Below, piece by piece: positions 8,200 through 29,804 of a DNA stretch of 64,000 bases. A program made the translations under genes and the position numbers. The stretch lies in IMG/VR virus record IMGVR_UViG_3300045256_000282, positions 85,069 to 149,068 of that record. The stretch is one strand, 5' to 3'. How positions within the stretch are numbered: the first letter of the stretch is position 1; the number at the start of each line of letters is the position of its first letter. The DNA is from a virus. Below the pieces are notes generated by a model. The model had not been told where the DNA came from. It did no database searches and was given only the letters and a program-made list of their open reading frames with translations.

Positions 8200-8213
8200 A
8201 GCACAATCTTGAA
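8200..8213 (+). promoter_or_regulatory. Putative phage late-promoter motif AGCACAATCTTGAA
   Basis: Core AATCTTGA at 8205-8212, 22 nt before ATG 8235; one of six similarly placed copies. Confidence 0.6.
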
Positions 8214-8234
8214 GGTAGGATATCACGGAGTTAT

Positions 8235-10856
8235 ATGGCATTTAATTCATCGGACCCCTTCGGGCTAGGCAAACAGATTGAAGACGTAGGCAGGTCCATA
8301 TCCGATGGCCTTAAGCAGCTTACCCAAGAAATTCAGGCCGGTAGCGGCTCGGCTTCCCCTGGACCATGGACAGAGTTTAAGGCCTCAAAAGAGGGTATGT
8401 TCCCATCCGTCCAGATCGACGGCGATCGTTGGAACCAACTTTACCCTTACCGGCTCGTTGTGTGGGACGCCGAACTAAAAAAGATCGTAGGCGCTGGTTT
8501 TGGTCAGTCTTTAAAAGAAAAGTATCAAAAGATAAGCCCAGACTCTTACAGGATAAGCTTTGAGCCTATGGCTAGCGCCTGGGAGTTTAGGCTTCCAATA
8601 ACACCTCAGCAATATTCCGTCTCTACTCCATTCACAGCCGTTACAACTGCTACTCAGCGCGGAATAGTTGAAGAGCACGGCGGTATCAAGTTTAAGATGA
8701 TCAACTGCTCTGGGAGCCTTGGTGTTTGGGCTAACAGAAAAAGCCTAAACGGTAAACCCGAAAATCCCTCGATCCTCACGACCCTTTTTTCTGGAACCAT
8801 CGAAGCGTTTCAGGGGGTAACTAATCAGATCGATAGGACCATCAGATCCATCACATCGAATCACCCAGCTCCCAAGCCAACAGAAAAAAACCCAGAAGGA
8901 TCAGACCTCGAGTCAACAGGGTATTACCAGATGCTTCTTCTGGATCAGTTTTTGGAGCAATACTCTGAGTTTAAGAAACAACCTTTTGCAAAAGATTGGA
9001 GACTTGTTCTTGATATCCCAAAAGAGAACCAGTCTTTCATTGTCACTCCTGTTCAGTTTACGTACAGCAAGTCTGCCGACTCTCCAAACGAAACCAAGTT
9101 TAACTTTCAGCTAAAAGCTTGGCGACGGATTGACTTAGCTGAAAAGGTTGCTCCTGCTACCTTTGACGACCTCACGCTTACCCCAGACCTTCTTAGAAAA
9201 GTAATAACTGCTGTTGAAGAAGCTCGAAGAACTATCGGCGCTTCCTATAACCTGATCAAGGCTGTTAGGTCAGATTTTCAAACTCCTTTCAACATCCTTA
9301 GAGAGATCTCATTATTTGCAAAAGATGCTGCAGGACTACCGGCAGCAGTTATTGATCTGCCAAGACAGATAATTCAAGATGCAAAATCGTCTTTAAAAGA
9401 TTCGATGAACAATCTTGATGATGCCTCTATTCAGCTTAATACGGGAACTTCAAAATCCTTAAAAAGCAGCCTTGCTACGGTAAAATCAACCTTTTCTTCA
9501 AGAGAAGGTATCTCCGACGCAGCGGTAACCTCCGGCCAAGTGGGCCTTTCTGCTAAGACAGCTCTCGATACTGATCCGTCTATCGATATCTTTAATAACC
9601 CAGAACAAAACTTTGACCTGTTTAATCTTTTAAGCGTTACAGACGTAAACTTCAACTTTGCTCAACAAGAAAGAATAGACAGTGATCTTGAGACGATACG
9701 AAACACTACGGTGGACGATCTTATAACTAAGCGAACTCAACTTTTAGAGCTTGCTCTTCAAATATCCAACGCTTTTGGTGCAGGAAGTCAGGATTACTCT
9801 GACATCTACGATACTCCGACTCCGTACAAAAGAATTCAACAGATGACGATTGATGAGTTTAGTATTCTAAAAAGCATCTACGATTCTATACAAGCGCTAG
9901 ATTCTATAACGTCAACCAACGAGCTTGATCAGGGTAAGAACGACAGCGCTTTTGAGTATGTAGGAAGCTTGGCTTCAGATTCTAACATACCCTTTGAAAA
10001 CAGCTTATCTAAGATACGAGTTCCAGTTCCGTTTGGGTTAAACATGGAACAAATGGCCGCAAGGTTTCTTGGCAATCCTGAGAGATGGATCGAGATAGCA
10101 ACTCTTAACGCCATGAGAAGCCCGTACATTGACGAAGATGGTTTCTTTTACAACTTACTTTCAAATGCAGACGGAAGACAGTTTAACGTAGAAACTAATC
10201 AAAACCTTTATGTTGGACAAAAGATCGTTCTATCAAGTCTAACCCAACCTCAGACTACTCGAAGAATCATCAACATTGAGCAGATCAGTCCGACCAACTT
10301 TCTTATCACCGCCGATGGCCTTGACAACCTCGATGTCTTCACGACCAATGATAAGGCCAAGATGAGGGCTTACTTGCCAGGTACGGTTAACAGTCAGGAT
10401 CAGATCTACATCCCTTCTGAACAAGATGTGACCGAGACGTTTTTAAGCAGACCCGTCCCCGCAACCAAGGGTGACCCCCTTGTAGGGTTATCAAAGATTG
10501 ACTGGCTTTTGACCGAATCCGGCGACATTGCTACGGACGCTTACGGGGATTTTAGGTTAGCCTTTGGTATCTCAAATCTTATCCAGGCACTTAAGATGAA
10601 GTTTTCAACCCCACCAAACAGGTTGCTAACCCACCCTGGATATGGTGCCGGGTTAACCCCAGGCATATCCACTGCCGATCTTAGAGATTCTGATGTGATT
10701 CGTCAGATAATCAAGTCTATTCAAAATGATCCAAGGTACGGTGATATCATAAGCTTAAATATCGATAGGGTTGGACCTAAGTACTCCATATCCTTATCGG
10801 TTACGTTGGCTGATGGAAGCGGCGTCTTTCCGATCAACTTCGTACTAAACGGATAG
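8235..10856 (+). CDS. Fused baseplate protein: tube-initiator-like N-terminus, LysM/tail-X-like domain and gp25-like C-terminus
   Basis: LysM-like 'MEQMAARFLGNPERWIEIATLN'; gp25-like end 'NLIQALKMKFSTPPNRLLTHPGYGAGL...IQNDPRY'; precedes baseplate J. Confidence 0.7.
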   Translation: MAFNSSDPFGLGKQIEDVGRSISDGLKQLTQEIQAGSGSASPGPWTEFKASKEGMFPSVQIDGDRWNQLYPYRLVVWDAELKKIVGAGFGQSLKEKYQKISPDSYRISFEPMASAWEFRLPITPQQYSVSTPFTAVTTATQRGIVEEHGGIKFKMINCSGSLGVWANRKSLNGKPENPSILTTLFSGTIEAFQGVTNQIDRTIRSITSNHPAPKPTEKNPEGSDLESTGYYQMLLLDQFLEQYSEFKKQPFAKDWRLVLDIPKENQSFIVTPVQFTYSKSADSPNETKFNFQLKAWRRIDLAEKVAPATFDDLTLTPDLLRKVITAVEEARRTIGASYNLIKAVRSDFQTPFNILREISLFAKDAAGLPAAVIDLPRQIIQDAKSSLKDSMNNLDDASIQLNTGTSKSLKSSLATVKSTFSSREGISDAAVTSGQVGLSAKTALDTDPSIDIFNNPEQNFDLFNLLSVTDVNFNFAQQERIDSDLETIRNTTVDDLITKRTQLLELALQISNAFGAGSQDYSDIYDTPTPYKRIQQMTIDEFSILKSIYDSIQALDSITSTNELDQGKNDSAFEYVGSLASDSNIPFENSLSKIRVPVPFGLNMEQMAARFLGNPERWIEIATLNAMRSPYIDEDGFFYNLLSNADGRQFNVETNQNLYVGQKIVLSSLTQPQTTRRIINIEQISPTNFLITADGLDNLDVFTTNDKAKMRAYLPGTVNSQDQIYIPSEQDVTETFLSRPVPATKGDPLVGLSKIDWLLTESGDIATDAYGDFRLAFGISNLIQALKMKFSTPPNRLLTHPGYGAGLTPGISTADLRDSDVIRQIIKSIQNDPRYGDIISLNIDRVGPKYSISLSVTLADGSGVFPINFVLNG

Positions 10857-10899
10857 GTAAAGACTGATGTTTTTAGTAGGATATGGCAAAGTAGGCAGA

Positions 10900-10911
10900 A
10901 CCGAATCTTTA
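10900..10911 (+). promoter_or_regulatory. Putative late-promoter motif ACCGAATCTTTA
   Basis: Core at 10904-10911, 19 nt before ATG 10931; the identical 12-mer recurs at 19968-19979. Confidence 0.65.
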
Positions 10912-10930
10912 AAGAAGAGCAGGTAAAAAG

Positions 10931-13900
10931 ATGGCAACTCCGCAACCAAAGTCATACGAACAGTTTCTTGGCGACATGCTGAGAGCCTATATCGCAAAAA
11001 CGGGCATTAACGACCTGAACACCGGGTCGGCTGTTACCGCATTCTATGAGGCCGTAGCCCTTGAGATCGCACGTACAAGCGGGGATGTGTTCCAGCTACT
11101 TAGGGACCTTTCGGTTGATCGAGCTAAGGGTGATGCTCTTAGAAAGATCGCTAAGGACGAAGGTTTACAAGAACTCCCAGCTCGGGTTGCCTCTGGACAG
11201 GTTACGGTTACCGACACGTCCTTTTCAAAGATCTCAACTAAGATCTACGCCGGAGCAAATCCCCCTAACATCGGATCAAACACCATCCTGGTGTCTGATG
11301 CGACAGATTTTCCTGCAGTTGGCAGTGTTTATATCGGCAGAGGAAGCCCTAACGTTGAAGGACCTATAGCTTACTCAGCCAAGACCCCTATCGGCGGTTA
11401 TTGGGCCATCGTCCTTACCAGCCCTACTACAAAGTTTCATAACATAAACGAATCCGTTATCTTGGCTCAAGGTGGTGTTCGAAACATCCAGGCAGGAACC
11501 GTAGTACGCGCCCCCGCGTCCGGCTCTAGTCCAGATATCAACTTCTCTGTCACTAAGCCAGCGGTTATTCTTGACGGGGAAACGACGGTTGATGGCGTCC
11601 AAGTATCGGCTCAAGAGCCAGGTACGGGTGGGAACGTCCCTATCGGTGCTATCCGAGAATTTAGCGCAGACCCTTTTTCTGGCGCTTCCGTAACAAACGC
11701 ACTCCCCTTTAAGACTGGGCGCGACGTTGAAACAGATGAAGAACTTCAGATTCGAATCAAAAGAGCAAGACTATCAAAAGGACTTGGTACGGTTCTTGCG
11801 GTTAAAAACTCCGTTATCGGAGCAACTCCTTCTGATGAAAATGCCACAATCGTAAGTTCAGAGATCTTAACTAGTTCTGATGGGCTGACAACCCTGTTCG
11901 TGGATGACGGAACCGGGTACGAGTCAAAAACTAATGGCGTTGGGATCGAAGTTTTAGTCGATGCAGCCATCGGCGGTGAAGATCATTTCCAACTTAAAAC
12001 GGGTGGAAGACAGACAAGCATCGCAAAAGCTTTTATCGTTAGTAACCTGAAGGCCCCGTTTGACGTTGCCGGTACCGACAAGCTTTCTATCTCTATCGGC
12101 GGCACCGTAACCGAGCACACCTTTTCTGATTCAGACTTCGTAAGCCCAGGTGGCGCTACCGGGTATGAGATCGTTGCATCTATCAATGCAAATACCGCAC
12201 TAGGTTTTAGCGCTGCTACGGTAAACGGTGGAACTCAGATTATCCTCTTTGGTAAGGTAGAATCAAACGAAGCAATTCAGGCGCAAGAAGTCACCTCTGG
12301 AAGAAACGTTGCTACCTTGATCGGTCTTCCTTCAAACAAGGTCGAAACTGCTCGTCTGTTTAAGAATAAGGTACCTCTAAGTAAGGATGGAGCAAAAGCA
12401 ACTATAAGCTCCGCAAAGCAAGTTGATTGGTCAGCATCGATCGCTTCTGGAGACACCCTCATTCTTTCTGTTGATGGAACGGCCTCAATTACTTATTCTA
12501 TCTTAGACGCAGATTTTATCGCTCAAGGAACTTACACTACGGTTTCTGCTGGAAACAGTCTTGAAAGCTGGGTTGCAGTACTCAACAATAAGCTGACAGG
12601 AGTTACGGCAGCAATCGTTGGCGAGAGAATCACGATCACCTCGAATCTTGGCCAATCTAATCGCGCTAAGGTGTCAATTGATGCATCCTCCACTTTAGTT
12701 ACCAAGGGTATGTTCAGCACAGCCGAAGGCTTGACGTCTTCTGGTAAGGCTGCAGACTATCAACTTTCTAGAAATACGGCGCAAGTCAGACTAAACACGC
12801 CGCTATCTGCCGGAGACAGCCTTACTGCAGGTACTCAAGATACTGAAGCTAGGATTCAATCCTCTCGGATCTTAGGAGGAACGGTCACCCTCTCCTCAGA
12901 CGCCTATTTTTGGCTAATGGTCGACGACGAGTTGGCTTCTTTGGTATCGACTGCGGTCGTAGCTAATACCATCATCAACGTCACAAAACCTTCTGCAAAT
13001 ATCGTAAGATACAGCTCAACTTCTCCTAGCGCCTTCTCCAACGTACAAGTTGGCGACTACGTTATCGTGTGGAGTCAAGAGCTTAGTGCAGCCAACCGAC
13101 TTGAAGGCAGAGTACATGCAGTATCGGCCCTTAACTTGGATATAAAAGTAGCCTCCGCCGAATATGCCGCCGCTGTTGTCGAAGGTCCTATTGTTTTTCA
13201 AGACGGTTTTGTAGTTTTAAGAAGCAAAAAAGTTCCTCAAAAATTTAAAGTTGGAGCTGGCACTAAGAGCTTAAGTGAGATAGCTGATGAGCTAAATCTT
13301 CAATCAACCAACTGTAAGTTCTCAGTTTTTGATGACGAGATTCTTGTACTTAATACACTTACAAAAACCGATAGCGGAGCTATCCTGGTTGTTACCGCAG
13401 ACACGAACGCTAAGCCGATATCTTTGCCTGTCGGAACCTCTAATACCAGCAACGAATCACTATATGCTTTTTACGAGAGCGGTTTTATTGAGGGTGGATT
13501 TCCTCTTTTTGTTCATTCTGACTTTGCTAGTGACTCAAGCGGAGTTCCTCCAGATTCTTACATCTCGTCAATCGGGACTGGAATTAACTTGTCTGCCGCT
13601 GGACTTGATCCCAACTTCATAGTTGGTTACTTGCAGCCGTACGGGAATATTTTGGACGCGCTTTCGCCATCAGAAAATACTCCCCTCGATAGCTATTCTG
13701 GATCTAACATCTCTATCGAGCAAGATAAGTTTGTTAAACGTCTCCGAGTAGGAGATCGCTGGTACGCAGCAAACCCTCTTGATTTTGGACAAGAAGAAGA
13801 GATGATCGTCGTTCTTGATGGGGATGCGTCAAACAAAACGTTTACGGTTCCTTTTTATCGTAGAACGAAGACCAACTCCACCCTTGCAGTAAATCCTAAC

Positions 13901-16900
13901 TCGTTTAACGCGTACGATCTTGACGCAGGACTTACCGCGCCTTTTACCACCTATTTCAGCTCTTCTTACAAGTTTGATAATTACAAGGTCTTAATGAGAG
14001 CAAGAAACGTACTGGACCCATCTGGGATTCAGAACGCCTTGCTCTACAGGTCCACCCAATGGGGTAGGTCTGGTGAGAAGGTTAATATTGGGTACATCTA
14101 CCCAACGTCGGCCAATTCTCCGATCAGCAGCGTAGTTACGGTTGATAAGAACGTAAACATCTCCATCTCGCTAAAATCTGGCGCAACGATTCCGACCACT
14201 ATTGACGGAAGCACCGAGTGGGATGTTACGATTACCCCAAACACCCCTTCTGCAGGGATAGATCAGGTGACCTATTCTTGGACTGGTACGGGAAGCGCTC
14301 CTGGGCTTACCGGATTAGCTGGAGGAGAGTATGTAAACATACTTTCCGGTTCTCAACTTGATCCAGCAAACACGGGCACGTTCAGGATCAGCACCGAGGC
14401 AGGCTTTGCACCAACCTCAACCAGCTTTACGGTAGCAAGACAGAATGGTTCCGCTGTTGCAGAATCAAACAAGGCAACTCTGGTGGCTAACGTGTTTAGC
14501 TTCTATGCCTCCTCTGCAACTACGGGGTCCGAAATACAGTCTTATGTTGCGTCTAGTCTTTCAAACTTCTTAGAAGCCACTATCGTTAACGACACCGGAC
14601 TTAGCGGCGGTGGAACTATAGTATTGAGTACCTTTGAAGATAGCGGTTTTACCTATAGCAGCATCTTCTTGAAGGACGGCTTAAACTGGATCGCAAGCAC
14701 TAACTTGGCGGGATCGCCTCAGTTTACATTCAAAAAATCCTTAGATCTTCCAACAGCTCAAGGGTACGCTTTTACTGACGGGGAAGAGATCAGACTTGTA
14801 CCAACCAATCTGGAGCAACTAGTTTCATTCTTAAACGTACTGGCCGTGACCGGATACACGACTCTTGGTAGGATCAATACTACCCGAAGAGACGGAAGAC
14901 TAGAATTGTCTACTAAAACGCTCGGTGGAGATGGGTCTGTTCAGGTGGTAGGCGGTCAAGCAAATGCCTCCGAAACTCCAGTGCTAGGCACTTCTCTTGT
15001 TTCGGAAAACAAGTACGTATTAACAAACGTGAACAAGTCTGGATTAGACGGACTTCATAGCGATCAGTGGGTTAGACTTGAATCTGCGAACAAGCAAAAG
15101 AAGGAAACTCTTTTCAAGTCTTCCATGAGTGTCCGTATCGAATCAAACGTCCCTACCTCCAACCAATCTACGATAACTTTAGGGAACAGGACACTAGCCG
15201 ATCGACACTTTGGGAAGCCAAGACACCACGTCCGTACTCGTTCGCGCAACTTTAAGGTTGAGCGTCAGGGTAACCTCACATGCTTTAGCTGGGACGGAAC
15301 TGGAACCCAGCCCTTTTTTGAAAAGCTAGTAAACTTAGACGACGCCTCTGGCGGAACTCTTAACGTTCAAAGGGTAACCGGAACAAGCGAAACACAGTAC
15401 ATCATCTTGACCGGCAACACCAACTTTACTGAGGTTTCTATCGGCGATCTGATCTCCGTACAGAACATGCTAAAATCAGCAAACAACGGCACGTTTCTGG
15501 TTACCGGCGTAAGTTCTGATGGTAAGATCTTAAGAGTGCTTAATGCTAACGGACAAGATCAGTTCTCAACCGGAACTTTTACGATCACGGACAACACAGA
15601 TATCTCAGGAGACTCCTTCATAGTTAACGGAAACGTTCTTATCGCAGGAGTTGACTTTGTCGTTGGCGGATCTGCGTCTGTTTCTGCTCAAAACCTAGCG
15701 TCAACGATCTCAGCACTTCCTGGAGTTAGCGCTACCTCATTCGGTAACGTTGTGACCATCCTTGCTGACAACGCTTCGGCAAATATCACGATCTCCTACG
15801 TCAATACCGTAGGTTCTCCGGGTGCCGTAGCATCTGGACCCTCTCTTGCCGGGGACACCTTTTCTTCTGGAGACTTCTCTTGCACTACAGAGGTTGCAGA
15901 AAACGATACCATCATCATTGGATCGCCTTTCAACATCCTGAACCAAGGAAAGTACAGGATTGTTAGACGTTACAATAACTCCTTCTATGTTGAAAATCTA
16001 AACTCGGTAGAAGAACTAGTTTCCATACCTTACAACCCAGTATCTTTGGGTTTTGACGGAACAACCGGGTTTGACATCGTAGCTTCTGATAATAAGATCG
16101 TCCTGTCTTGGGACGGATCTGGAACAGAGCCACAACTAGGAAACGCTAAGGTTGGCGATGAGATTACCTTCGGATCAGACTTCGCAGCTTCTAACCAAGG
16201 CACTTGGATGGTTAGTAAGTCTCAAGGTAAGTTAAAAGAAGTTACAAAGATCACAACGCCGCAAGGAAGCTTGATCGGTGCTGGTCAGTATTTCTATCTA
16301 AACGCAGCAGAAGATTCCACCCTTTACTATGTTTGGTATAAGGTGAACGGTATTGGTGTAGACCCTGCCGTCGTGGGCAGAACCGGAATCCTAGTAAATA
16401 TCGCTTCTACAGACACTTCTTCTCAGGTGGCTTCTTTAACTGCGGCAGCCATCGATGTGTTGGCAGACTTTGTTGCCACTTCGTCGGGAAGTTCTGTTAG
16501 GGTCACTAACGCAGCCTTTGGACCTTCTACGGATGCAGCAAATATCAACGTGGGTGGCGGCATAGTTATCCAGGTTGTTCAACAAGGACAAAGAACCTCT
16601 CTTGAAGCGATTAACGCTGCGGCAGTAAGCGAATCTGGAATTGTCGTAACTGACGTTCTTGAGATTCACAGACCTCCTTTCTTAACTTACGAGTATGAGG
16701 CCACGGTTGCAGACGATACGTTCATGATAACAAGTGACTTCTTAGGATCTTCAAATCAGGGTAACTGGAAAGTTCTTTCTGTTCTTGATCAAGACCGCAT
16801 CGTGGTTAGCGGCGCTATGTCGGATCTTGACCCGACCGGAGTACTTGGAAATCAAGGAAATCTTATCTTAGAAGAGCGCACTCCTTTTACTGGATACAAG

Positions 16901-17482: not shown

Positions 17483-17489
17483 GGTTTGA

Positions 17490-19094: not shown

Positions 19095-19516
19095 TGAAGA
19101 GTTTAATCTTAACAGGCCCATGCGTAAAGCTTTTTATAAACAATAAGCTTTATAAAGAAGTTCAGCAAGTTTCCTACTCGATCGACTACGGCGAGTACGA
19201 GATCTTTGGCATCGATTCGTCTTTTCCTCAAGAGATAGCGCCAGGAAGGTCTATGGTCAGAGGATCTATAACCGGCATCAGGATCAAGTACTCCGGGGGT
19301 ATTCAGGCCTACGATGCAAGGCCCCTTATAAGAAACCTTATCGCAGCTCCGTACATAAGCATACGCTTAAACGACAGGGCTAGTGGGGAAGATGTGTTGT
19401 TTGTTCAGAATGCGAAGATAACGAATCAAAAGGTCAGCATTGGTGCAAAAGGCACCGTAAAGCTGAGCTTTGATTTTTCAGGGCTGATAGCTTACGAACC
19501 CCTGGATAGGGCCTAA
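19094..19516 (+). CDS. Tail tube-like protein
   Basis: 140-aa beta-rich protein (EVQQVSYSIDYG...PQEIAPG...VRGSITG) with tube-fold character. Confidence 0.5.
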   Translation: MKSLILTGPCVKLFINNKLYKEVQQVSYSIDYGEYEIFGIDSSFPQEIAPGRSMVRGSITGIRIKYSGGIQAYDARPLIRNLIAAPYISIRLNDRASGEDVLFVQNAKITNQKVSIGAKGTVKLSFDFSGLIAYEPLDRA

Positions 19517-19884
19517 TCTTGTACGTCTGGAGTAAACTTCTTACCGCGAGTTCTATGGGGGCAAGAGTCACATTTCCTGTAATACCAGGTTTCTGCGATC
19601 TTGTAGTACTTAACCATGCGTAACTTACCTTCTTTACACTTAAAGCAAGTCCGATCTTTCCCGACTGGTTTGGTCAAGCATGGCTCTGGAAGGGTCATCT
19701 TTTCGTCTTTTGAATCGTACCGATCCAAACAACCTGGACACCAACCAGACTCAAGTCTGTTTAAGTTCTTGCGAATTCGTGATATTTCGGTCTTCAGCTT
19801 CTTGTTCTCGTGCGCTAACTTCTGGATTTTACTGAATTCTTTATCACCGCGACTGCCTTTTCCACCGTTCCAGCTCTTTGACAT
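19513..19884 (-). CDS. Small basic coiled-coil plus Zn-ribbon protein, antisense to the structural operon
   Basis: CPGC, CFKC and CDSC motifs; GAGG RBS; has its own promoter elements upstream. Confidence 0.7.
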   Translation of the reverse strand: MSKSWNGGKGSRGDKEFSKIQKLAHENKKLKTEISRIRKNLNRLESGWCPGCLDRYDSKDEKMTLPEPCLTKPVGKDRTCFKCKEGKLRMVKYYKIAETWYYRKCDSCPHRTRGKKFTPDVQD

Positions 19885-19911
19885 ATCTTTTTGTACCTCA
19901 AGTACCCTAAG

Positions 19912-19925
19912 TTCAAGATTGCGCT
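19912..19925 (-). promoter_or_regulatory. Putative late-promoter motif AGCGCAATCTTGAA (minus strand)
   Basis: 13/14 match to the 8200-8213 copy; core lies 28 nt upstream of the start at 19884. Confidence 0.55.
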
Positions 19926-19934
19926 GTCGTGATA

Positions 19935-19963
19935 ATGATATCGTAATAATGGGTCGTTTTCAA
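19935..19963 (-). promoter_or_regulatory. Sigma70-type promoter TTGAAA-N17-TATCAT
   Basis: -35 at 19963-19958, -10 at 19940-19935, 17-nt spacer, upstream of the Zn-ribbon gene. Confidence 0.65.
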
Positions 19964-19967
19964 CAGG

Positions 19968-19979
19968 ACCGAATCTTTA
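19968..19979 (+). promoter_or_regulatory. Putative late-promoter motif ACCGAATCTTTA
   Basis: Core at 19972-19979, 19 nt before ATG 19999. Confidence 0.65.
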
Positions 19980-19998
19980 TAGGTAGAAGGACTCTATC

Positions 19999-22752
19999 AT
20001 GGCAGTAAGGCGTAGACAGAATTGGGTATCCCAGCAACGAGTTGACGTTCCGCATATTCGGTCGTTAGAGTCTGCCGCGTCCAATGACTTTGACGAACTT
20101 TTAAAGGGTTTCGTCACCGGCTCTAGCGGTCTGATCCTCAGAGGGTTTGAGATCAACATGACGGGCGCTATCGGGGGCGCAGCCGCTGGATTACAGCTCA
20201 TCGTAGCCGATGGATGCATTTTTCATACCACATCAAACGAATCCGGTACGTTTTACGTAGTCCCATCCTCAACCTCACCTGAGGTGATGAACTCGACTAT
20301 CAACACCAGGGTTTCGGGGGCCTTTACTCCAAACGCTGTCAACTATGTGGGTATCGAGTATGAGCGCATAATCGACGACACGACTTCTGACCAGATCTAT
20401 ATCTGGGACCCAACCAATAAGAACGAGGTGACCAAGACCGTACCTCTAGCAAAGATCCTTCGCTATAAGATCGTAATCACGACAAGCGTTTGGGCTGCAA
20501 ACGTTCTTCCTATCGCAAAAGTTACAACCGATGTCGCTGGCAACGTCGTCGACGTTACTGACCAAAGAGCTATGCTCTTCAGGCTCGGAAGCGCCGGATA
20601 CTCGAACCCAAACCCAGCATACGTTTATCCTTGGACAAATCAATCTGAGGGCCGATCTGAGAATCCACCAACCTCCACCTCTAATTCTTTAAATCCTTTC
20701 CACGGTGGGGATAAGATGATCTTCAACTTGAAGGAGTGGATGGACGCCATCATGTCCTCCTTCAAAGAGATCAAGGGAACCACCTACTGGTACTCCGAAA
20801 ACTCTGGTGGGTCGCTAGTAGGATTAAGAGCAGACCTCGGGAACCTGGTATTTACTGGTAAGGGTAACATCTCTCACGATGCTACGACGGCTGGTAAGAT
20901 TAACTGGTCTCAGGACATCTACCTTAAATTTATCGGAAGCAGACTTTCCTACAAGATCGCTGCTAACACTTCTAGCTCAGACATCGTACTAGCTGATGAT
21001 CAGGTTGCTTACTTCAAGCTTATTCGCGAGCAAACTATCATACCAAACCTCATCTGGACCAACGCTTCGGCTATCGTAGCCTCTGTTGGCGCTGTTGCTT
21101 GGACAGGGCCACTCGTTGCCGGTGACTGGTTAAAGCTTGCAACAGACGACACTACCCAATATTACCAGATTCAATCAGTTGATTCTTTGAGCCAAATCAC
21201 ACTAACAGTTCCGTTTGGCGGATCTTCAACAGGACCATCTGGCGCTAAGTCTCAATATGCTTTTGGTGTTTATCAAACCGATCCAGCACCTTCTACCGAT
21301 CGCCACATCAAGATCGCAGCTAGAAAAGATGTTCCTTTTGATCAGAATAATTTCTGGATCATGGTTCGTGCAGATAACGGCGGAAGCACAGCTCGAGTTT
21401 ACGCACGGTTCATGGCTGCTGAGCTTGAACAAGGTGAGCGCCGCCAGATCAGCGACAACCAAACCGATAACATCTTAGACTACATAGGTTCTCCAGACGA
21501 AGTGTCGTATGAGCCGCTGTATTCAACTCTTTTAGGACCCCTAGTTTCCGAGTCTACCGATATCGTGGTACCGAACGCCGTTTCTATCACAAGCGGCCAG
21601 TATTTTACTATCAATTCTGCAAACGACGCGACCAGTTATTACGTTTGGTTTAACCGTGATGGAGCTGGTGGCGACCCCCTTGTTGTCGGAAAAACCCCTA
21701 TTTCTGTAGCTATTTCTACTGGAGATTCGGCAAGTACGGTTGCTTCCGCTCTTGCGTCTTCACTTAACGCTCTTTCTGATTTTAGTGCATCTGCAGTAGG
21801 AAGCACCGTAACAGTTACCAATACGACCGTTGGACCATGTACTGATGCAGCTAACTTTAACGTTGGCGGAGCTTTCTCTATCACAGTAACCACCCAAGGT
21901 ACTGGTCAGGCAAATCATTACATTATAGATACGGAAAACCTGACTCTTTCCATCAAGAGACTTGATCGAGCAATTTTTGCAAATGCTGCAGATACAGATC
22001 CTAAAGCTTACGAAGAAGCCTACGATGTAATTGCCCCTATAACTGCAGGGACCAACATCACTATCCCCGTAGACTCTCGTTCAGGCGGATCAGTTAAGAC
22101 CTATACGGTTGGCAAGGGACAACTTGCTGTTTTCTTAAACGGCCAATACCTTAGGTTGAACGACGACTTCTCTGAAGTTGGTTCTTCTGGCACCCAAAGC
22201 AACACGATACAAACATTAATAAATCTTGTTGCTGGAGATGTGCTTGAATTTAGGCTGATCAAGAACGGTTCTGGTGGAAGCGGCGGTGGAGGTGGTAGCG
22301 GAGAATCCAACACTGCTTCTAACCTTGGTAGCGGGGCAAGTGTATTTAAACAAAAAGTCGGTGTAGATCTTCAGTTCAGACGCATCAACGCCGGAGCTGG
22401 CGTTGTGGTTACTCAGAACGCAAACGATATCACGATCACTTCAACTCCGGTTGCGGCTAGCGATAACGTTGTTGTTGTAAGTGGAACCAACTATACAGCT
22501 ACCGTTGCGAACGACGCAATCTTGATCTCTGCTTCTGGAAGTAACAGAAACGTTGTGCTCCCAAGCGCTATTGGGAACTCTGGTAAGAGGATCAAGATCA
22601 AGATGCTTGATTCTGGTTTCCAGATTCTTATTAAGACCGTACTGAACCAGACGATTGACGGAGTTGACTGTACCGTATCGTCACTGAACATCGCTACTCA
22701 GTACGAGGTTGTTGAAGTGATCAGCGATGGCGCAAATTGGTGGATCGTATAA
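19999..22752 (+). CDS. Multidomain tail/baseplate-attached fibre or adaptor protein
   Basis: Ser/Thr/Gly-rich with a poly-Gly linker; shares a ~95-aa module with the J protein and a VFLNG module with the 108-aa protein. Confidence 0.6.
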
Positions 22753-22753
22753 T

Positions 22754-23203
22754 ATGAGCTATAGACCATACGCAGCAATCATCGCAGAAGCATCTTCCTC
22801 AGCGTCGGGAATCAAGTTTGATCTTAAGAACGACAGCGGCTCGGCCATCTCTGCCCTTCAACCAGTATCAACCGACGTTTTTGGTAAGGCAAAGGCCGTA
22901 GACGTTTCCGTAGAGTCAGATGCTTTGAAGGTCGTAGGCATAGCTGGTTCCAGCATCCCCAACGGTAGTTATGGCAGCATCTATAGCCATGGCAAGGTAG
23001 AGAACATCACCACTTCCTATGATTTTGGGGATTATATATACGTGTCAAAAACAGGCGGACTGACCAACATCCTACCTTCCGAAGGCGTAGACGGGTTTGT
23101 GTCTGGTGATTTTATAATCAGGGTAGGGATAATCGTTAGAAATCGAGTTACCCCTAGCCAAAAAGATTTAGTGATCAACATAGGCATAATCGGACAGGTG
23201 TAA
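22754..23203 (+). CDS. Capsid decoration/cement-like (DUF2190-type) protein
   Basis: Start at ATG 22754, right after the upstream stop. 'VVGIA...G...G...GDYIYVS..GGLT...P' pattern, also seen at the C-terminus of the 571-aa protein. Confidence 0.5.
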   Translation: MSYRPYAAIIAEASSSASGIKFDLKNDSGSAISALQPVSTDVFGKAKAVDVSVESDALKVVGIAGSSIPNGSYGSIYSHGKVENITTSYDFGDYIYVSKTGGLTNILPSEGVDGFVSGDFIIRVGIIVRNRVTPSQKDLVINIGIIGQV

Positions 23204-23206
23204 GTT

Positions 23207-23404
23207 ATGGAAAGAATTAGGAAAGTTGACGTAGAAAAGCTTTCAGATCAAGACCTCAAGAACGTTGAGGACATGATTTCTAAGAAGATGAAAGAGATCA
23301 CAGAGAAAGCGATTGTTGAAGCAAATCGCTATCTTAACGTGTACGGCTATGAGGCGATCATGGCAATTCAGTTCAAACCCAAAGAAGAGGAATCTTTAGA
23401 GTAA
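23207..23404 (+). CDS. Hypothetical 65-aa helical protein
   Basis: Co-oriented ORF filling the gap; charged and helical. Confidence 0.6.
   Translation: MERIRKVDVEKLSDQDLKNVEDMISKKMKEITEKAIVEANRYLNVYGYEAIMAIQFKPKEEESLE
23391..23398 (+). promoter_or_regulatory. Putative late-promoter motif AATCTTTA
   Basis: 31 nt before ATG 23430, which has a strong AGGAG RBS. Confidence 0.55.
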
Positions 23405-23429
23405 GGTCCAAAGGACATAGGAGATAAAA

Positions 23430-25145
23430 ATGGCCGACATTAGCAAACTATCAAGATTATTTAACGGGGTCGCAAGGCAGGTTGACCTGTCCCTTAACAC
23501 CCTGGTTGTGGACAACCTCAAGGTAAAGCTGGGCGGTTCAAGCCAGTTTACCTTCTCGGGATCGCTTACGGCTGGCCGTACGATCACGATGCCTGACGCC
23601 GACGTTAATCTAGGCTATATTGCAGCTCTAGTCACCCTGTCCGGGGTTTCTGGCGGGGCAACGGATCTTGGTACCTTTACCGGAACTACGATCTCTGACA
23701 ACCGTACGATCAAGCAAGCTCTTCAAGACCTTGAAACCTATGTCGAAACCGTAAGTGCTAATAACGAGTTTCTTGATAGCCTTTTCAGGATCAAGGACAA
23801 CTCTGACCCATCTAAGAAGATCGCCTTCGAAGCTTCCGGCATCTCCACCGGAACTGTTCGTACAATCACGATGCCTGATGCTGACGTTAACTTGGCAGAT
23901 GCTAATAATGCCATCTTAAAGAACGGCACTCGCTCGTTTACTGCCGACCAGTCGATGGGCGGAAACAAGCTGACCAACTTGGCAGATCCTATCTCCTCTC
24001 AAGATGCTGTCACCTTGGCCTACATGAATGCTCGCTTGAACGGCCTCACTCCTAAGGCACCTGTTCGAGCTGCAACTACCGCAAACATCACGCTAAGCGG
24101 CGCTCAAACGATCGACACCGTGTCTATTGTTGCTGGTAACCGCGTTCTCGTTAAGAACCAGACGTTGCCAGAACAAAACGGTATCTACGTGGCTGCAGCC
24201 GGAGCATGGTCTCGCGCTGCCGATATGGACTCCCTTACCCCGTTTGATGAGTTCAACGGAGCGTGGACGGCTGTTCAAGAAGGTAGCCAGGCTGGCCAAG
24301 TTTATGTTCAGTACGGAACCGTTGCTACGGTTGGAACAGACCCCGTAACCTGGGCGTTCTACAATCCGATCGCAGGCCTTATCGGCGGTGATATGATCAC
24401 CTTCGCAGGATCGACCTTCTCGGTTGACCTTGCTACTGTTTCAGGTCTCGAGTCTAGCAACCCAGGAAACGTTGCGGGTCAGCTCCGAGTTAAGCTCGAA
24501 GCCTCTAACCCAAGCTTGCGCATCACCGGCTCTAACGAGCTTGCTGCGAAGCTTGACGCGGCTGGTGCTATCACTAGCGGATCTGGTGGATTGATCGTCG
24601 GAACCGATGGCTCTACTACCGAGATCGCTTCTAACCAAGTCCGAGTAAAAGACGCGGGTATTACGGCTGCTAAGCTCAACACGAACGTTGCTGACCAATC
24701 AACCATCACTGGCGGCGCTGGATCTGCTCTTGCAGTTCAAAATGCTCCGTTGGTTCGCAAGAGCATGGTTGCTGGCGAAGCTTTTGCTGCCAACACCTCG
24801 TTCCTCGTTCGTATGGCGGTCAGCGGTGAAACTGCTGGACGCGTTTACAAGGCTGATAAGGACGCCTCTGTTACTGATAAGTTTTACGTTGTCGGAGTTG
24901 CCCTTTCAACCTCAGCAGTATCGGCTGGACAAAGCATCACTGTTGTCAGCTTGGGTACCAGCGTGCTAGGATCTAGTGACACCCCGTTCGTGTCAGGAGA
25001 TGTTGGCAAGGCAGTATTCTTGACTAGTTCGGGCGCTTTTTCGACGACCGCTCCTTCGGCAGCCAACGAAGCTGTTGCGCGAGTTGGTATCGTTGAAAAC
25101 ACGGATCGTATCTGGGTACAACCTGGGGTGGTCGGAGTTAATTAA
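23430..25145 (+). CDS. Fibre protein (possible head fibre)
   Basis: Duplicated RTITMPDADVNL; neck-like motif NKLTNLADP..QDAVT; common fibre domain VRAATTANITLSG...RVLVKNQT...NGIYV; decoration-like C-terminus. Confidence 0.65.
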   Translation: MADISKLSRLFNGVARQVDLSLNTLVVDNLKVKLGGSSQFTFSGSLTAGRTITMPDADVNLGYIAALVTLSGVSGGATDLGTFTGTTISDNRTIKQALQDLETYVETVSANNEFLDSLFRIKDNSDPSKKIAFEASGISTGTVRTITMPDADVNLADANNAILKNGTRSFTADQSMGGNKLTNLADPISSQDAVTLAYMNARLNGLTPKAPVRAATTANITLSGAQTIDTVSIVAGNRVLVKNQTLPEQNGIYVAAAGAWSRAADMDSLTPFDEFNGAWTAVQEGSQAGQVYVQYGTVATVGTDPVTWAFYNPIAGLIGGDMITFAGSTFSVDLATVSGLESSNPGNVAGQLRVKLEASNPSLRITGSNELAAKLDAAGAITSGSGGLIVGTDGSTTEIASNQVRVKDAGITAAKLNTNVADQSTITGGAGSALAVQNAPLVRKSMVAGEAFAANTSFLVRMAVSGETAGRVYKADKDASVTDKFYVVGVALSTSAVSAGQSITVVSLGTSVLGSSDTPFVSGDVGKAVFLTSSGAFSTTAPSAANEAVARVGIVENTDRIWVQPGVVGVN

Positions 25146-25471
25146 TGGCTAAGTTCACGAGGATCGTTAATGGAGTTTTGAGGTCTTTTGACGAGTCGGG
25201 TACCCCGACCGTCTACCTCCAACCTATTGACATCGTATCGTCAGGGGCTGGTGCAAACCAGCTCAACGGTCCCGTGACGGCTGGTACTAACGTTACCTTG
25301 CCATCAAGCGGAACGTATAGCGGAGACGAGTTGATCGTAACGCTCAACGGCTCGTACTTAGACCCTGTTTTTGACTACAACTACGTGGGATCGGGAACCA
25401 GAACGCAAGTTTCTTTCACCTTTGACTTGGTAGTTGGTGATAGAATAGACTTCAAGAAGTATAGGAACTAA
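25145..25471 (+). CDS. Small virion adaptor protein (VxLNG...DY module)
   Basis: Paralogous to an internal module of the 917-aa protein. Confidence 0.55.
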   Translation: MAKFTRIVNGVLRSFDESGTPTVYLQPIDIVSSGAGANQLNGPVTAGTNVTLPSSGTYSGDELIVTLNGSYLDPVFDYNYVGSGTRTQVSFTFDLVVGDRIDFKKYRN

Positions 25472-25473
25472 TC

Positions 25474-28400
25474 ATGCCGAATATCTTTGACTTACGTCAG
25501 ACACAGCAACGCTCAAGCCTCCCCTTCATCACTGGAGCTGCAAACAGCCTCGGTAATGCGATCGTTTCGGCAATTGACGCTGAGTTGGCGAAACTTTTTG
25601 AAGATCGTAACGTTCTTTTGACCCAAGGTGGTTTGATCACCTACACGGGTACCCAGATCCAGTTTGGTGAAGCGCTTAAGCTTGAGATCAATTCTAAGGT
25701 GGCTGGCGGCTCTCCCGTAATCATCGACCTTGGATCGACCACTCGTACGGTCTCTGCTTCTGGCCGAATGGTTTATGCTGTTATTAATCGTACCGCTGGA
25801 ACCGCTACGGTTACGGACGATGCAACAACCCTCCCTGCAGTAACTAACGCTAACCAAGAGGTGTTCTTGATCGCTAAGCGACAAGATGCTGCCGATGGTA
25901 CTAAGCGCGTTTATTTCCGAACCGGAGCTGCTTTCAACGAAGGCCAAACCGCTCGATTGGGCTCGGCTGGTAGCGGCTCGGGAACTGGTGGTGCTGGTGA
26001 CGACATTAACACTCTCCGCTTCAAAGCTTCTTTCTCAGACGATTTCTCTGACAGCCCAACCTCTTCGACCAGCGCAGTCAACAACACCCTTACTACGGGT
26101 GTTTATAGCGCTGCAGGTGCCGCTTACCGCTTAAGCTACGATGCTTCTAAGACCGTAACTGGTACCGGAACTAGCATGACCTTGTCTGCCACTCCAACCT
26201 ACACGGTAGCCCCAGGGGATATCCTTGTGGTTGGTACGGAAGCTCGCCGAATTACTGTGGTAGCAACACAAACTTCTTACACGATTGAAGCCGCTTTTAG
26301 CGCTAACCCTTCGGCTGCTGCGGCTTGCGTTTCTCAGGCTGTTCACACTAACGACATCAGAGCGCATACCGAGAACAGTACTGGCCTTGCGATGAACGCA
26401 CTCATCTCAGACGCAGTAAGCACCTTCATGCTACGCTACAGAGATAGCGCCGCTAACAACGACTTTGTTTGGGATTATCCAGGCGCAGCCCTTATCGCCG
26501 CAAGCTCTTCCGCTGATAACGCTAACTGGAGCGCTCCCTACACTCGCACCACTACTCTTGGAACTACTGAGCCAATTCGTTCAGTACCAGTTTCTGGTTC
26601 ACAGTTCCGTACGCGATTCTTCGCAAACGCTACGAGCGGAAGTGGCGCTGTAAACATCCTCGATTATAAGGCCTATCTTCACGAAGATTCTGGCACGACT
26701 TCAGGCACCACGATGGATCAGGCTTACGGCCTCACCTCTGGAGCCGGAACTCCGATCAACTGCTCGATCAGCTCCTCGACTGGAAAAACTCGTATCACGA
26801 CCACATGGGCGTACGCTACAGGCGTAAACCCAGGAACTCAGCAAGGTCAACTTGACGTTTACCTAGACGGAAAACTCCTCCCAAGATTTATCAACGCAAC
26901 CCAAACCCCAGATGCTTACTATACGGAGATCTCAGCTCAAGTTATCGAGCTTGATCAGGACTATAGTGGCGCAGGTATTGAAATTGATATCAAGAAACGC
27001 GTAAGCGCGGTAGATACGACCTCACAGAACAGCACGAACCTTGGCTACCTGCAAGACATGTCTAAGGTTGGTTTTCAAGGCTTCGTTGATGAAAGCTCTT
27101 TGCTTTCTCCGATCACTGGTGCTCCTTCCTCATCTCAGTTCAGAACATTTGGTATCGTAAACAGAGCCTCTATCCCCAATCTTTCAAATGACCTCCGTGC
27201 CCGTATGGGTATCGATCGTATTCAAGTTCAGCAAGCGGTTGAGCTTCAAAACGAAGTTGGCCCCAACGGCGAGAAAATCTTTGGAGCTTTGAACGACGAT
27301 AGAAACTTGATTCGTTTTGTCGGAAATTGGAAAAACTTAACAAATACTTTTGGTAGCGTCGTAAACCCTTCTGCTGTAGGTGATTACATCGAAGTAGTTT
27401 TCTATGGCACAGGCTTGAACATGCTTGTGGGTTTTGTAAATGAAACACAAGATATCAGAGTCATAGTAGATGGCGGATCTGAAGGATCAAACATCTGGCC
27501 AAATGGGTCTACTCTTTTAAACGGTAGAAATTATAGCCAGAATGCTGTTCTTTCGATTGCTTCAGGATTGTCTCAAGGATTGCATACCGTGAGGATCAGG
27601 CAGGCAAACTTAGGAAGTTCCGGCGTTTACCTGACTGGTTTTGAGATTCTAAACGAATCTTCAACCATCAACGTCCGCCCTGGTACGTCTTATCAAAACG
27701 GCAAAAAGCTTGTTCTCTCTTCTGCTCAAAGTCTTGCATACAACTCAAGTTTTGAATCAATCCTTAGAGACGGCTCTTTGGTTGGATCACTTTCGACCAG
27801 GGGTGCTCACGTTGTTGTTTATCAGAAATCGGACGGTACGGTAGCTAAAGCAGCTATCGAAACCAACAGTTCTGCTGCGTATATAACCTCTGCTGATCAT
27901 ACAAACGAAGAAGTTGCTAGAACCTATTATCCTAGAGAATTTGGCGCAGGAAGATCTGATGACTTTAGCACCCTTTTAAGCTCAGGGAGCACCAGAGCGT
28001 TTACTCTGGACGATGGTACTACAGCTCTTGCTTGCCAAAACTACGCCTTAAACAACGTTGGCGGTTTGGGAGACGGATTGATTGTGGGCTCTGGTGCGGG
28101 TGACTTTGTTACCTTCACGTTTGTTGGAACTGGTTTAGACATCACTAACGTGAGAAACGCTACCTCAAACTCTTCTTATACGATTACAGTTGATGGAACA
28201 AACGTACTGACAGCCTCCGTTTTTGGTGGTTCTGGTTTTAATAACGTCCTAAAGATAGCTTCGGGACTTCCTTACGGCACACACACTGTCAAGATCAACA
28301 TGACCACCAACGGCGGTGTTGCTCTTGCTATTGGTAAGTTCATTGTTTATCAACCCAAGAAACCTTCCATTCCTGCAGGTGCAGTTGAACTAGCAGATTA

Positions 28401-29388
28401 CAACGTCATGGCTGATTTTATAGCTAACACTACGGTCGGCGTTGACACGATCTCTACGGGAATATTAAGAAAAAACTGTACGAGAGAGGGTGTTTATTTT
28501 GGAACTGGATGGACCCTCGGACTTGGACCAATCAACAACTCCGGCGGTTTTTCTTCTGGCGGAACTACTGTAACATCTGGCGCATACATCGAGTACACCT
28601 TCTTCGGAACTGGTTTTGATTTCAGAGGTTTCGGTGGCGTTGGATATACTACAAATACTCAAGTTACGCTTAACGGTTTGAATGCGACAACCACCAACTT
28701 CCCAAGCTTGGTCTCTAGCGCGATCTCTCCGTTTACTTTCACAGCATCTACGGGTGTTTTAACACAAAACGGAGCCAACACGGCTGGAGCTGGTTTCAGG
28801 ATCTCTGGGCTGCCTTTGGCAAAATACACTGTTAGATTTACGAACAACGCTAACGCAACGTACCTGGATATGTCAAACATTGACGTTATTACTCCTATCC
28901 ACTCGGTTAAGTCTAACTTCCAAGCTGACCTTCAGAACACTCTTCCTGTCGGAAGCTGTGCTTTGAGCGATAACCGTAGGTTGAGCGCTGTGAAGAGCGA
29001 AGATCCTGCAAAAGCGACCATACAGGCAATCGGTATCAGCTCTGTCTCAACAACTTCAACGGTCCCGGTACCTATTCCAGACGCAACCTGCGTAGTCAGG
29101 ACTACAAAACCACTCTCGTACATAGAAGTGTGGTTTACTGGATCTGCTACGAACACTTCGAACGGGAACTTTGTTCAAGGCGTAATATACGTGGACAATT
29201 TACCAGTAGCTGTTCCAAGTACAGCCTATCCATTGAGCGGAAACGGGGATGCGATAGTTTGTCACGCTATTGTACCTGTTGGTGCGGGAACACACACCAT
29301 AACGACCTATTGGAAAGTTAGTGCGGGAACCGGAAGTTTTCAATCAAATTCTGGTGAAAACCGCATCTTAACGGTACGAGAGCTATAA
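25474..29388 (+). CDS. Receptor-binding/tail fibre protein, paralogue 1 (1304 aa)
   Basis: Three FxGTG...(V/L)(D/N)G...GL...(H/Y)TV beta-sandwich modules plus a C-terminal beta-sandwich tip; paralogous to the next two large genes. Confidence 0.7.
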   Translation: MPNIFDLRQTQQRSSLPFITGAANSLGNAIVSAIDAELAKLFEDRNVLLTQGGLITYTGTQIQFGEALKLEINSKVAGGSPVIIDLGSTTRTVSASGRMVYAVINRTAGTATVTDDATTLPAVTNANQEVFLIAKRQDAADGTKRVYFRTGAAFNEGQTARLGSAGSGSGTGGAGDDINTLRFKASFSDDFSDSPTSSTSAVNNTLTTGVYSAAGAAYRLSYDASKTVTGTGTSMTLSATPTYTVAPGDILVVGTEARRITVVATQTSYTIEAAFSANPSAAAACVSQAVHTNDIRAHTENSTGLAMNALISDAVSTFMLRYRDSAANNDFVWDYPGAALIAASSSADNANWSAPYTRTTTLGTTEPIRSVPVSGSQFRTRFFANATSGSGAVNILDYKAYLHEDSGTTSGTTMDQAYGLTSGAGTPINCSISSSTGKTRITTTWAYATGVNPGTQQGQLDVYLDGKLLPRFINATQTPDAYYTEISAQVIELDQDYSGAGIEIDIKKRVSAVDTTSQNSTNLGYLQDMSKVGFQGFVDESSLLSPITGAPSSSQFRTFGIVNRASIPNLSNDLRARMGIDRIQVQQAVELQNEVGPNGEKIFGALNDDRNLIRFVGNWKNLTNTFGSVVNPSAVGDYIEVVFYGTGLNMLVGFVNETQDIRVIVDGGSEGSNIWPNGSTLLNGRNYSQNAVLSIASGLSQGLHTVRIRQANLGSSGVYLTGFEILNESSTINVRPGTSYQNGKKLVLSSAQSLAYNSSFESILRDGSLVGSLSTRGAHVVVYQKSDGTVAKAAIETNSSAAYITSADHTNEEVARTYYPREFGAGRSDDFSTLLSSGSTRAFTLDDGTTALACQNYALNNVGGLGDGLIVGSGAGDFVTFTFVGTGLDITNVRNATSNSSYTITVDGTNVLTASVFGGSGFNNVLKIASGLPYGTHTVKINMTTNGGVALAIGKFIVYQPKKPSIPAGAVELADYNVMADFIANTTVGVDTISTGILRKNCTREGVYFGTGWTLGLGPINNSGGFSSGGTTVTSGAYIEYTFFGTGFDFRGFGGVGYTTNTQVTLNGLNATTTNFPSLVSSAISPFTFTASTGVLTQNGANTAGAGFRISGLPLAKYTVRFTNNANATYLDMSNIDVITPIHSVKSNFQADLQNTLPVGSCALSDNRRLSAVKSEDPAKATIQAIGISSVSTTSTVPVPIPDATCVVRTTKPLSYIEVWFTGSATNTSNGNFVQGVIYVDNLPVAVPSTAYPLSGNGDAIVCHAIVPVGAGTHTITTYWKVSAGTGSFQSNSGENRILTVREL

Positions 29389-29456
29389 TTGATGATAAGT
29401 TCTGTTGTAAGATGTTTATAAGTTCCCATAAAAGGGATTAACAAGGAGAAACGAAG

Positions 29457-29792
29457 ATGGTAAAGTACACAAAAGAATTAGAATGGAAACAGCATATGGT
29501 CGATCTCGAAGCTTTTGAAGCTTGGGCTAAGGCTAACTGCGGCGCAGACTACTGCGGCAACTCTGCCGACGCCAAGCTGCGTTTGCACTTTCTTGAGCAA
29601 CCTAGTCAAGCAATTGAGGACGCTATCGACTCTAAGTGGGAAGACTTAGACGACGAAGAACATCCTATGTGCGTATCTTATAAGTCTGAAGAAGAACGTA
29701 AGGTAGAGGCTCAAGCTAAAAAAGCCAGTGCTATTAGCAAGTTGGCCGCTTTAGGTCTATCGCAAGACGAACTTAAGGCTATTTTAGGGTAA
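29457..29792 (+). CDS. Putative fibre assembly chaperone-like protein
   Basis: Acidic 111-aa protein after a fibre gene, AAGGAG RBS, ending KASAISKLAALGLSQDELKAILG. Confidence 0.5.
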   Translation: MVKYTKELEWKQHMVDLEAFEAWAKANCGADYCGNSADAKLRLHFLEQPSQAIEDAIDSKWEDLDDEEHPMCVSYKSEEERKVEAQAKKASAISKLAALGLSQDELKAILG

Positions 29793-29804
29793 GCACAATC
29801 TTTA
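29792..29804 (+). promoter_or_regulatory. Putative late-promoter motif AGCACAATCTTTA
   Basis: Core at 29797-29804, 22 nt before ATG 29827; shares AGCACAATCTT with the 8200 copy. Confidence 0.65.

Follow-up and report, generated by a model that had tools for sequence, protein, structure and literature searches.

AATCTT(T/G/A)A as a probable single-box late promoter of an Mx1-like myovirus, with a truncated phage sigma factor as its candidate reader

Late transcription of bacteriophage T4 starts at promoters that carry the TATAAATA box at -10 and depends on the sigma factor gp55, the co-activator gp33 and the clamp gp45. In phage phiEco32, promoters read by the sigma factor gp36 consist of a single element, tAATGTAtA, with transcription starts 6-8 bp downstream, and the missing -35 element was attributed to the lack of region-4 homology in gp36 (PMC8948821). 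Here, we describe an element of similar design, AATCTT(T/G/A)A, in a stretch of viral DNA of 64,000 nucleotides (the window), which comprises bases 85069-149068 of a 149,068-bp IMG/VR viral contig; genome coordinates refer to this whole contig. We consider it likely that the box is a -10-only promoter of the late, i.e., virion genes of a myovirus related to Myxococcus phage Mx1, probably read by a phage sigma factor without region 4.2.

By analogy, the gp36 promoters of phiEco32, rather than those of T4, appear to be the closest described system. In both cases a phage sigma factor encoded among the middle genes redirects, or in our case would redirect, the host core polymerase to one element of 8-9 bp without a -35 partner, and the two boxes agree at six of eight positions when compared by eye (AATGTATA vs AATCTTTA). 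The systems differ in that the putative sigma factor of our phage, a protein of 346 amino acids (aa), has no detectable homology to gp36: a tblastn search of 50,697 GenBank phage records with this protein returned Mx1 only. Furthermore, phiEco32 is a podovirus of 77 kb, whereas the present phage is a 149-kb myovirus known here from sequence alone, and many of its sites imply leaderless mRNAs. With T4 it shares one -10-like box without a -35 element before virion genes, boxes that often lie inside or at the end of the preceding gene, and a sigma factor unable to read a -35 element. However, the T4 consensus TATAAATA is not matched by AATCTT(T/G/A)A, and gp55 is small and consists of region 2 only, whereas the 346-aa protein models as regions 1.2-4.1. 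Bacterial -10-only and extended -10 promoters of sigma70 have their hexamer in the same place, with A at position 2, T at position 6 and a start about 7 nt downstream, as we infer for our box. The present boxes lack the TG at -15/-14 of the extended type, and AATCTT departs from TATAAT in having C at position 4 and T at position 5. The initial annotation had proposed a phage-specific late promoter on the model of T4. This proposal gains support from enrichment, gene class and conservation, and the computational checks suggested for it all came out in its favour, with the qualification that phiEco32 gp36 is a nearer precedent and that the sigma factor is not a gp55 homologue.

A pattern search reproduced the six copies of AATCTT(T/G)A that had been listed in the window, and the spacings between 8-mer and start codon, measured anew, agree with those given before (Table 1). 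Equally real are the common flanks, namely ACCGAATCTTTA at 10904 and 19972, AGCACAATCTT at 8205 and 29797, and AGCGCAATCTTGAA versus AGCACAATCTTGAA. As had been noticed, a gene follows each of the four plus-strand copies of AATCTTTA in window 1-36 kb, and AATCTTGA at 9411 and 22518 is intragenic. A shared -35 element had not been seen, and position counts confirm this: from -15 to -1 there are only weak preferences for purines and T. The TG of an extended -10 is also missing: at the third base before the hexamer the counts are C7 A7 G3, with T absent, and at the second base before it G9 A5 C3. Five further copies were found beyond the first list, at 23451-23458 (-), 38663, 42120, 61508-61515 (-) and 63903-63910 (-), and none of these five stands before a start codon. 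The one-mismatch variant AATCTTCA at 54811 is kept as a weak candidate only, because C at position 7 is otherwise unenriched.

The six boxes split the tail/baseplate block of the genome into successive units, each of them headed by a box, and the block itself is headed by another copy at genome 84817, directly before the window start. The copies at 19913-19920 and 19972-19979 form a divergent pair. The minus-strand copy of this pair precedes a real gene, since the 123-aa product has an orthologue at the same place in a relative (37% identity, E = 3e-24), whose open reading frame (ORF) has a box before it, too. The 123-aa protein shows a CxxC...CxxC...CxxC spacing, and its gene, headed by a separate box, is divergent to the 917-aa tail gene. 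Longest-ORF calling overlooks this gene and picks an overlapping ORF on the plus strand.

Table 1. Positions of boxes, related signals and genes discussed in the text. Positions refer to the window unless marked as genome; distances run from the end of the 8-mer to the ATG.
Feature	Position	Strand	Context
Box AATCTTGA	8205-8212	+	22 nt before ATG 8235, 873-aa baseplate-type protein
Box AATCTTTA	10904-10911	+	19 nt before ATG 10931, 2183-aa protein
Box AATCTTGA	19913-19920	-	28 nt before ATG 19884, conserved 123-aa Cys-rich protein (19513-19884, -)
Box AATCTTTA	19972-19979	+	19 nt before ATG 19999, 917-aa protein (19999-22752)
Box AATCTTTA	23391-23398	+	31 nt before ATG 23430, 571-aa virion or tail-fibre-type protein
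Box AATCTTTA	29797-29804	+	22 nt before ATG 29827, 756-aa protein
One-mismatch variant AATCTTCA	54811-54818	-	26 nt before ATG 54784, 527-aa protein; weak candidate only
Intragenic AATCTTGA	9411-9418	+	no downstream start codon
Intragenic copy	22518-22525	+	no downstream start codon
Intragenic copy	23451-23458	-	no downstream start codon
Intragenic copy	38663-38670	+	no downstream start codon
Intragenic copy	42120-42127	+	no downstream start codon
Intragenic copy	61508-61515	-	no downstream start codon
Intragenic copy	63903-63910	-	no downstream start codon
Host-type promoter-like site TTGAAA-N17-TATCAT containing GATATCAT	19935-19963	-	just upstream of minus-strand box; signal class distinct from the box
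Divergent sigma70-family protein, 346 aa (putative)	genome 2100-3140 (outside window)	-	next to helicase gene, in replication-gene operon
76-aa protein, candidate region-4-like sigma partner	52587-52817	-	language-model resemblance only
Terminase, portal, major head protein and tail sheath genes	genome 4.7-46 kb	+	PHROG/Pfam
Tail/baseplate block	genome 84.9-121.5 kb (window 1-36.4 kb)		PHROG/Pfam
Replication block: polymerase, helicase, UvsX-like recombinase, SSB, ribonucleotide reductase, SbcC	after tail/baseplate block	-	

The genome-wide check on upstream regions that had been proposed for the motif gave a clear result. Gene starts were taken from a simple longest-ORF caller, which is crude and dropped two conserved ORFs. 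Of 49 copies of AATCTT(T/G/A)A in the 149-kb genome, 15 lie in upstream windows, where 1.1-1.2 are expected (P = 3e-13), and 17 do so when the two ORFs are restored. These copies are placed in sense orientation 4-31 nt before the start codon, and the P-value of this placement is about 1e-13 to 1e-16. The placement upstream of transcription units is orientation-specific: only 4 of 49 copies are found upstream in antisense, compared to 15-17 of 49 in sense, and the antisense cases are partly owing to divergent box pairs. In the interval 6-40 nt before starts no hexamer is more enriched than AATCTT (20 of 193 copies vs 4.4 expected, P = 2.5e-8), which is ahead of the Shine-Dalgarno hexamers; among 8-mers in the last 60 nt before starts, AATCTTTA heads the list (9 of 22 vs 0.75 expected). 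AATCTT also leads the 60 hexamers that share its base composition, having 18 copies upstream where the runner-up has 6, and it holds rank one of 60 in Mx1 and in the relatives G001 and G002 as well. The hexamer is invariant at the 17 sites of the present genome. No enrichment is seen for copies that have a base other than A at position 8, or C at position 7.

Box-bearing genes are concentrated in the virion modules. Counting two genes with the box at 61-62 nt, 19 genes carry it, which comprise 16 of the 68 genes in the two virion blocks versus 3 of the 126 others (Fisher P = 5e-6); the 34 replication genes are all without a box. In Mx1, about 15 copies stand directly before annotated starts, including those of portal, tailspike, baseplate and neighbouring genes. 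From these gene functions we infer that the box-headed units are expressed late. At genome 9250-9257, 20 nt before the portal gene, we also find AATATTTA, a box variant which is used genome-wide by the comparison genome G003 (as CCTAATATT).

The phage belongs to a group with a single cultured member. Matches to PHROG and Pfam families identify it as a myovirus, and among the 50,697 GenBank phage records Mx1 is its sole cultured relative, with 54% identity in the major capsid protein and the same gene order. A megablast search with 16 kb of the present phage gave no match in GenBank phages. Besides Mx1, the comparison set included the genomes G001, G002, G003 and G005 and relative contigs with labels such as L014-L021. 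The contig under study is recorded as 'linear' and is a self-closing assembly of about 148.9 kb: its first 147 nt (genome 1-147) equal its last 147 nt (148922-149068; window 63854-64000) except for one base. Therefore the replication-gene operon crosses the contig ends into the helicase and sigma genes, and the replication block runs on into the genes at genome 489-4645.

The comparison with related phages that had been called for found the box kept in relatives, including Mx1; the feature is thus real and conserved across the clade. AATCTT(T/G/A)A is placed upstream in 14 of 67 copies in G001 (P = 1.5e-9), and CAATCTT in 7 of 29 copies in G002 and 9 of 32 in Mx1. The box is retained before the orthologues of three window genes and of the small divergent gene (19513-19884, -), and the flanks diverge. 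For the 917-aa protein, 27 viral contigs yielded orthologues. Upstream of these, the closer relatives keep AATCTT(T/A)(A/T) within diverged flanks, which holds for L014-L021, and the box also precedes the orthologue of the 2183-aa protein in L015, L016 and L019. More distant relatives have (A/G)GTATAAT or AATATTT at the 917-aa junction instead. Conservation is strongest at the box-preceded gene between terminase and portal (genome 8299), where AATCTT occurs not more than 60 nt upstream of the orthologue in 39 of 42 contigs. All 42 contigs carry the sigma gene, and they span protein identities of 31-73% and G+C contents of 33-69%.

Where the sigma gene changes, the box is changed as well. G003 has a much diverged sigma orthologue (157 bits); in this genome AATCTT is found upstream in only 3 of 214 copies, and CCTAATATT takes its part with 14 of 40 copies upstream (P = 4e-13), including a site exactly 6 nt before ATG. 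G005, a complete and distant genome of 167 kb (L057-L065), has no orthologue of the truncated sigma. Instead, up to three of its ORFs are sigma-like, of which two pass the Pfam Sigma70_r2 cut-off, and its sigma genes are canonical (Sigma70_r2, 84 bits; PHROG 351, 4.5e-68). Its box is GGTATAAT, with 25 of 64 copies upstream, before 25 genes, and the distant relatives without the truncated sigma use GGTATAAT at the same gene junctions. This co-variation of box and sigma is correlative, yet it is what a box specified by the sigma factor would predict. In a comparison of the sigma sequences by eye, HFYPSD versus KLSPVE/KIPAND are candidate residues of region 2.3/2.4 that may go with the C/A switch in the box.

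The spacing between box and start codon is informative about the likely transcript geometry. When the gaps that separate the hexamer from the start codon are pooled over five genomes, nine sites have exactly 6 nt and none has 3-5 or 7 nt; a few follow at 8-11 nt, and the remainder form a broad group at 15-37 nt, far enough from the start codon to accommodate a Shine-Dalgarno sequence. As the last base of the -10 hexamer is at -7 in sigma70 promoters, sites with the arrangement N6-ATG would have the A of the ATG at +1, and leaderless mRNAs are predicted for them. In Mx1, the genes starting at 36563, 75289 and 121405 have this arrangement. Of TATAAT, AATCTT retains the two most important bases, the A at position 2 and the T at position 6, as do the variant boxes AATATT of G003 and TATAAT of G005. 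The gap distribution argues against a -35-type element, a distal activator site and an RNA operator. No shared RNA structure is found at the six window sites (z-scores -0.9 to +0.5).

A candidate for the reader is the 346-aa product of a gene outside the window. It shares 37% identity with the 'putative RNA polymerase sigma factor' of Mx1 (WNM70309), matches PHROG 351 'RNA polymerase sigma factor' (E = 2e-5) and has about 900 metagenome homologues of similar length, some of which are labelled as sigma by the Joint Genome Institute (JGI). A Foldseek search with an AlphaFold model of the protein returned chains of sigmaA, sigma70 or sigmaS for all of the top 50 listed matches (E from 9e-5, probability 0.97-1.0). 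VIA-align places model residues 9-285 on residues 94-504 of sigma70 with Z of 11-12, co-linear over domains 2 and 3. The fold alignments span region 1.2 through domain 3 and mostly end near residue 566 of E. coli sigma70, which precedes the recognition helix of region 4.2. The six orthologues compared, which stem from five genomes and from Mx1, share the C-terminal motif '...K(V/L)LxLKG(V/I)', at which all of them end. The protein thus models as regions 1.2 to 4.1 and would end before the helix-turn-helix of region 4.2. A sigma factor unable to read a -35 element fits promoters that have none. The initial annotation had drawn an analogy to a sigma that reads a single box, and this is borne out insofar as the phage encodes a sigma70-family protein without region 4.2 and its early genes have ordinary TTGAC-N17-TATAAT-like promoters. 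That the 346-aa protein itself reads the box we regard as moderately probable.

Other candidates were considered as reader or partner. The ORF directly after the sigma gene does not supply the missing region 4.2, but encodes an unrelated 107-aa protein. A multisubunit RNA polymerase of the phage was rejected, as PF00562 and PF00623 were not found with working controls; PF00940 of single-subunit polymerases was not found either, but its control was silent, and the rejection of a single-subunit enzyme is accordingly tentative. The 330-aa protein of the replication block at window 42528-43520 (-) found no support as a split sigma, with no Pfam, PHROG or PDB match and an hhalign probability below 1%. 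Its AlphaFold 2 model (predicted local distance difference test, pLDDT, 74) is mixed alpha/beta with a best Foldseek match of E = 0.3, and only 12 homologues exist in 5.8 billion clusters. As a lead only, the 76-aa protein of Table 1 could be a separate region-4-like partner: sequence and profile searches with it were negative, and by language-model features it resembles viral 74-aa clusters that carry Sigma70_r4 (0.90). The clade sigma may work with such a separate small region-4-like protein, too.

Taking these observations together, the following mechanism is the most likely one. The 346-aa sigma would bind the host core RNA polymerase and redirect it to the boxes. AATCTT(T/G/A)A would be the only sequence-specific element of the late promoters, without a -35 partner; AATCTT would take the place of the -10 element, at about -12 to -7, and transcription would start approximately 7 nt past its last T. 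The resulting mRNAs would either have a leader of 9-31 nt with a Shine-Dalgarno sequence or be leaderless, in those cases where the box is exactly 6 nt before the ATG. The early genes would be served by host-type TTGAC-N17-TATAAT-like promoters.

Several observations weigh against this reading, and they concern both the box and its proposed reader. At least 30 of the 49 copies of the 8-mer are intragenic or unplaced, and most copies, being intragenic, may be inert. Three box genes are found among the 92 small genes of the central region, outside the virion modules. The operon of scaffold and major capsid protein has no box, but a canonical TTGAAA-N17-TATAAT about 95 nt before its first gene (genome 16325-16360, L009). 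Therefore not all virion genes depend on the box; the abundant scaffold and capsid proteins may be made from a host-type promoter. A pooled hexamer count over 58 contigs of the sigma neighbourhood gave 70 sense and 49 antisense copies with 23 expected, which is uninformative, since AT-rich words are generally enriched upstream of genes. Regarding the sigma factor, a 26-member profile searched against the PDB gave 23 of 23 matches to sigma region 2.1-2.2, all of them weak (E = 0.03-0.9). None of the 26 members passes the Pfam Sigma70_r2 cut-off; the G002 orthologue reaches 18.6 bits with the cut-off at 24. The AlphaFold model is of medium quality (pLDDT 68), and chance alignments of helical proteins can attain a Z of 12 as well.

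Among other explanations, the box could be the binding site of a late activator or antiterminator of the phage, comparable to P2 Ogr, Mu C or lambda Q, which recruits host sigma70 to a weak -10 nearby. Several sites do have a host-type GATAT(C/T)AT 12-19 nt upstream, and one overlaps a match to TTGACA-N18-TAGGAT. We consider this unlikely, as the nine sites with a gap of 6 nt leave no space for a separate -10 between box and start codon, no second conserved element accompanies the box, and sigma70-like sites are at chance level in the late block. Moreover, the box itself bears the A2/T6 signature of a -10 hexamer and co-occurs across the clade with the sigma that lacks region 4.2. As this link is correlative only, the box might instead be read by an alternative sigma of the host, with a different role for the phage sigma, e.g., at middle promoters; the second promoter-like class, (T)GATAT(C/T)AT, also needs a reader. 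This is slightly less probable still. The same hexamer is used by phage contigs of 33-69% G+C, which presumably have very different hosts, and it changes where the phage sigma is diverged or missing. As for the second class, (T)GATATCAT occurs with TTGAC at a spacing of 17 bp, as expected for the housekeeping sigma of the host.

If the box functioned at the RNA level, where it could serve in the 5' leader for processing or as an operator of translation, its strand specificity and its closeness to ribosome-binding sites would be accounted for. We judge such a function very unlikely: the distance to the Shine-Dalgarno sequence or start codon varies over 6-37 nt with a hard minimum of 6, the six window sites have no common RNA fold, and the box heads units after divergent intergenic regions that otherwise lack an upstream promoter. 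There remains the view that the pattern arises by chance or as a by-product of AT-rich intergenic composition. The raw count of AATCTT(T/G)A in the window is indeed only mildly high (13 vs 7.7 expected, with 2 of 100 shuffles reaching 13), and AT-rich hexamers are generally 1.3-2 times enriched upstream of genes. However, composition-matched hexamers all rank behind AATCTT in four genomes, the present one included, the placement of the 8-mer has the P-values given above, and 39 of 42 orthologous junctions keep the hexamer. Shuffle, antisense and same-composition controls rule this view out, and its probability is negligible.

Signals of the host type occur beside the proposed late promoters. 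Intergenic spacers of the early region hold host-type promoters of the form TTGAC-N17-(T)GATAT/TATxxT; in the late block, two-box sites of the sigma70 type and intrinsic terminators are at shuffle level. The word (T)GATAT(C/T)AT recurs in intergenic spacers at genome 4651, 55332 and 60979 and at window 19935-19942, and several copies are the perfect palindrome ATGATATCAT. It is sometimes found 17 bp after TTGAC and sometimes 12-19 nt upstream of an AATCTT box. This suggests that these words are -10 elements of the host type and that early and late promoters abut.

From a wider perspective, we lean slightly towards the view that a large and almost unstudied clade of Mx1-like myoviruses of about 150-170 kb runs its late programme with a sigma factor that goes undetected by Pfam and stops short of region 4.2, a single box of 6-8 bp and often leaderless mRNAs, and that the box was switched between AATCTT, AATATT and TATAAT with the change or replacement of the sigma. 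The Mx1 genome paper does not contain the words 'promoter' or 'transcription', and a full-text literature search found no paper that combines AATCTT with phage late-promoter terms. If true, the pairing of single-box promoters with a phage sigma that has no -35 reader would be known from a third, independent case besides T4 gp55 and phiEco32 gp36. The lineages of boxes and sigma factors would form a natural series that could reveal how -10 specificity depends on sigma region 2. A testable regulatory map of late units and predicted starts would become available for a widespread phage group, of which Mx1 is the one cultured member. With the box as a guide, late genes could also be located, unannotated ones among them, and start codons could be corrected, including the leaderless ATG 6 nt after AATCTT.

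Two further observations concern genes of the replication region. The 107-aa ORF directly after the sigma gene (L009:1780-2103, -) appears co-chaperonin-like by eye and has no family match, and a GroEL-type chaperonin gene is located near the sigma gene (L009:4671-6455, +; PHROG 5725, E = 3e-86). The ribonucleotide reductase of 939 aa (window 56396-59215, -) matches its own PHROG family in two stretches, residues 3-326 and approximately 642-709, which suggests an inserted element such as an intein.

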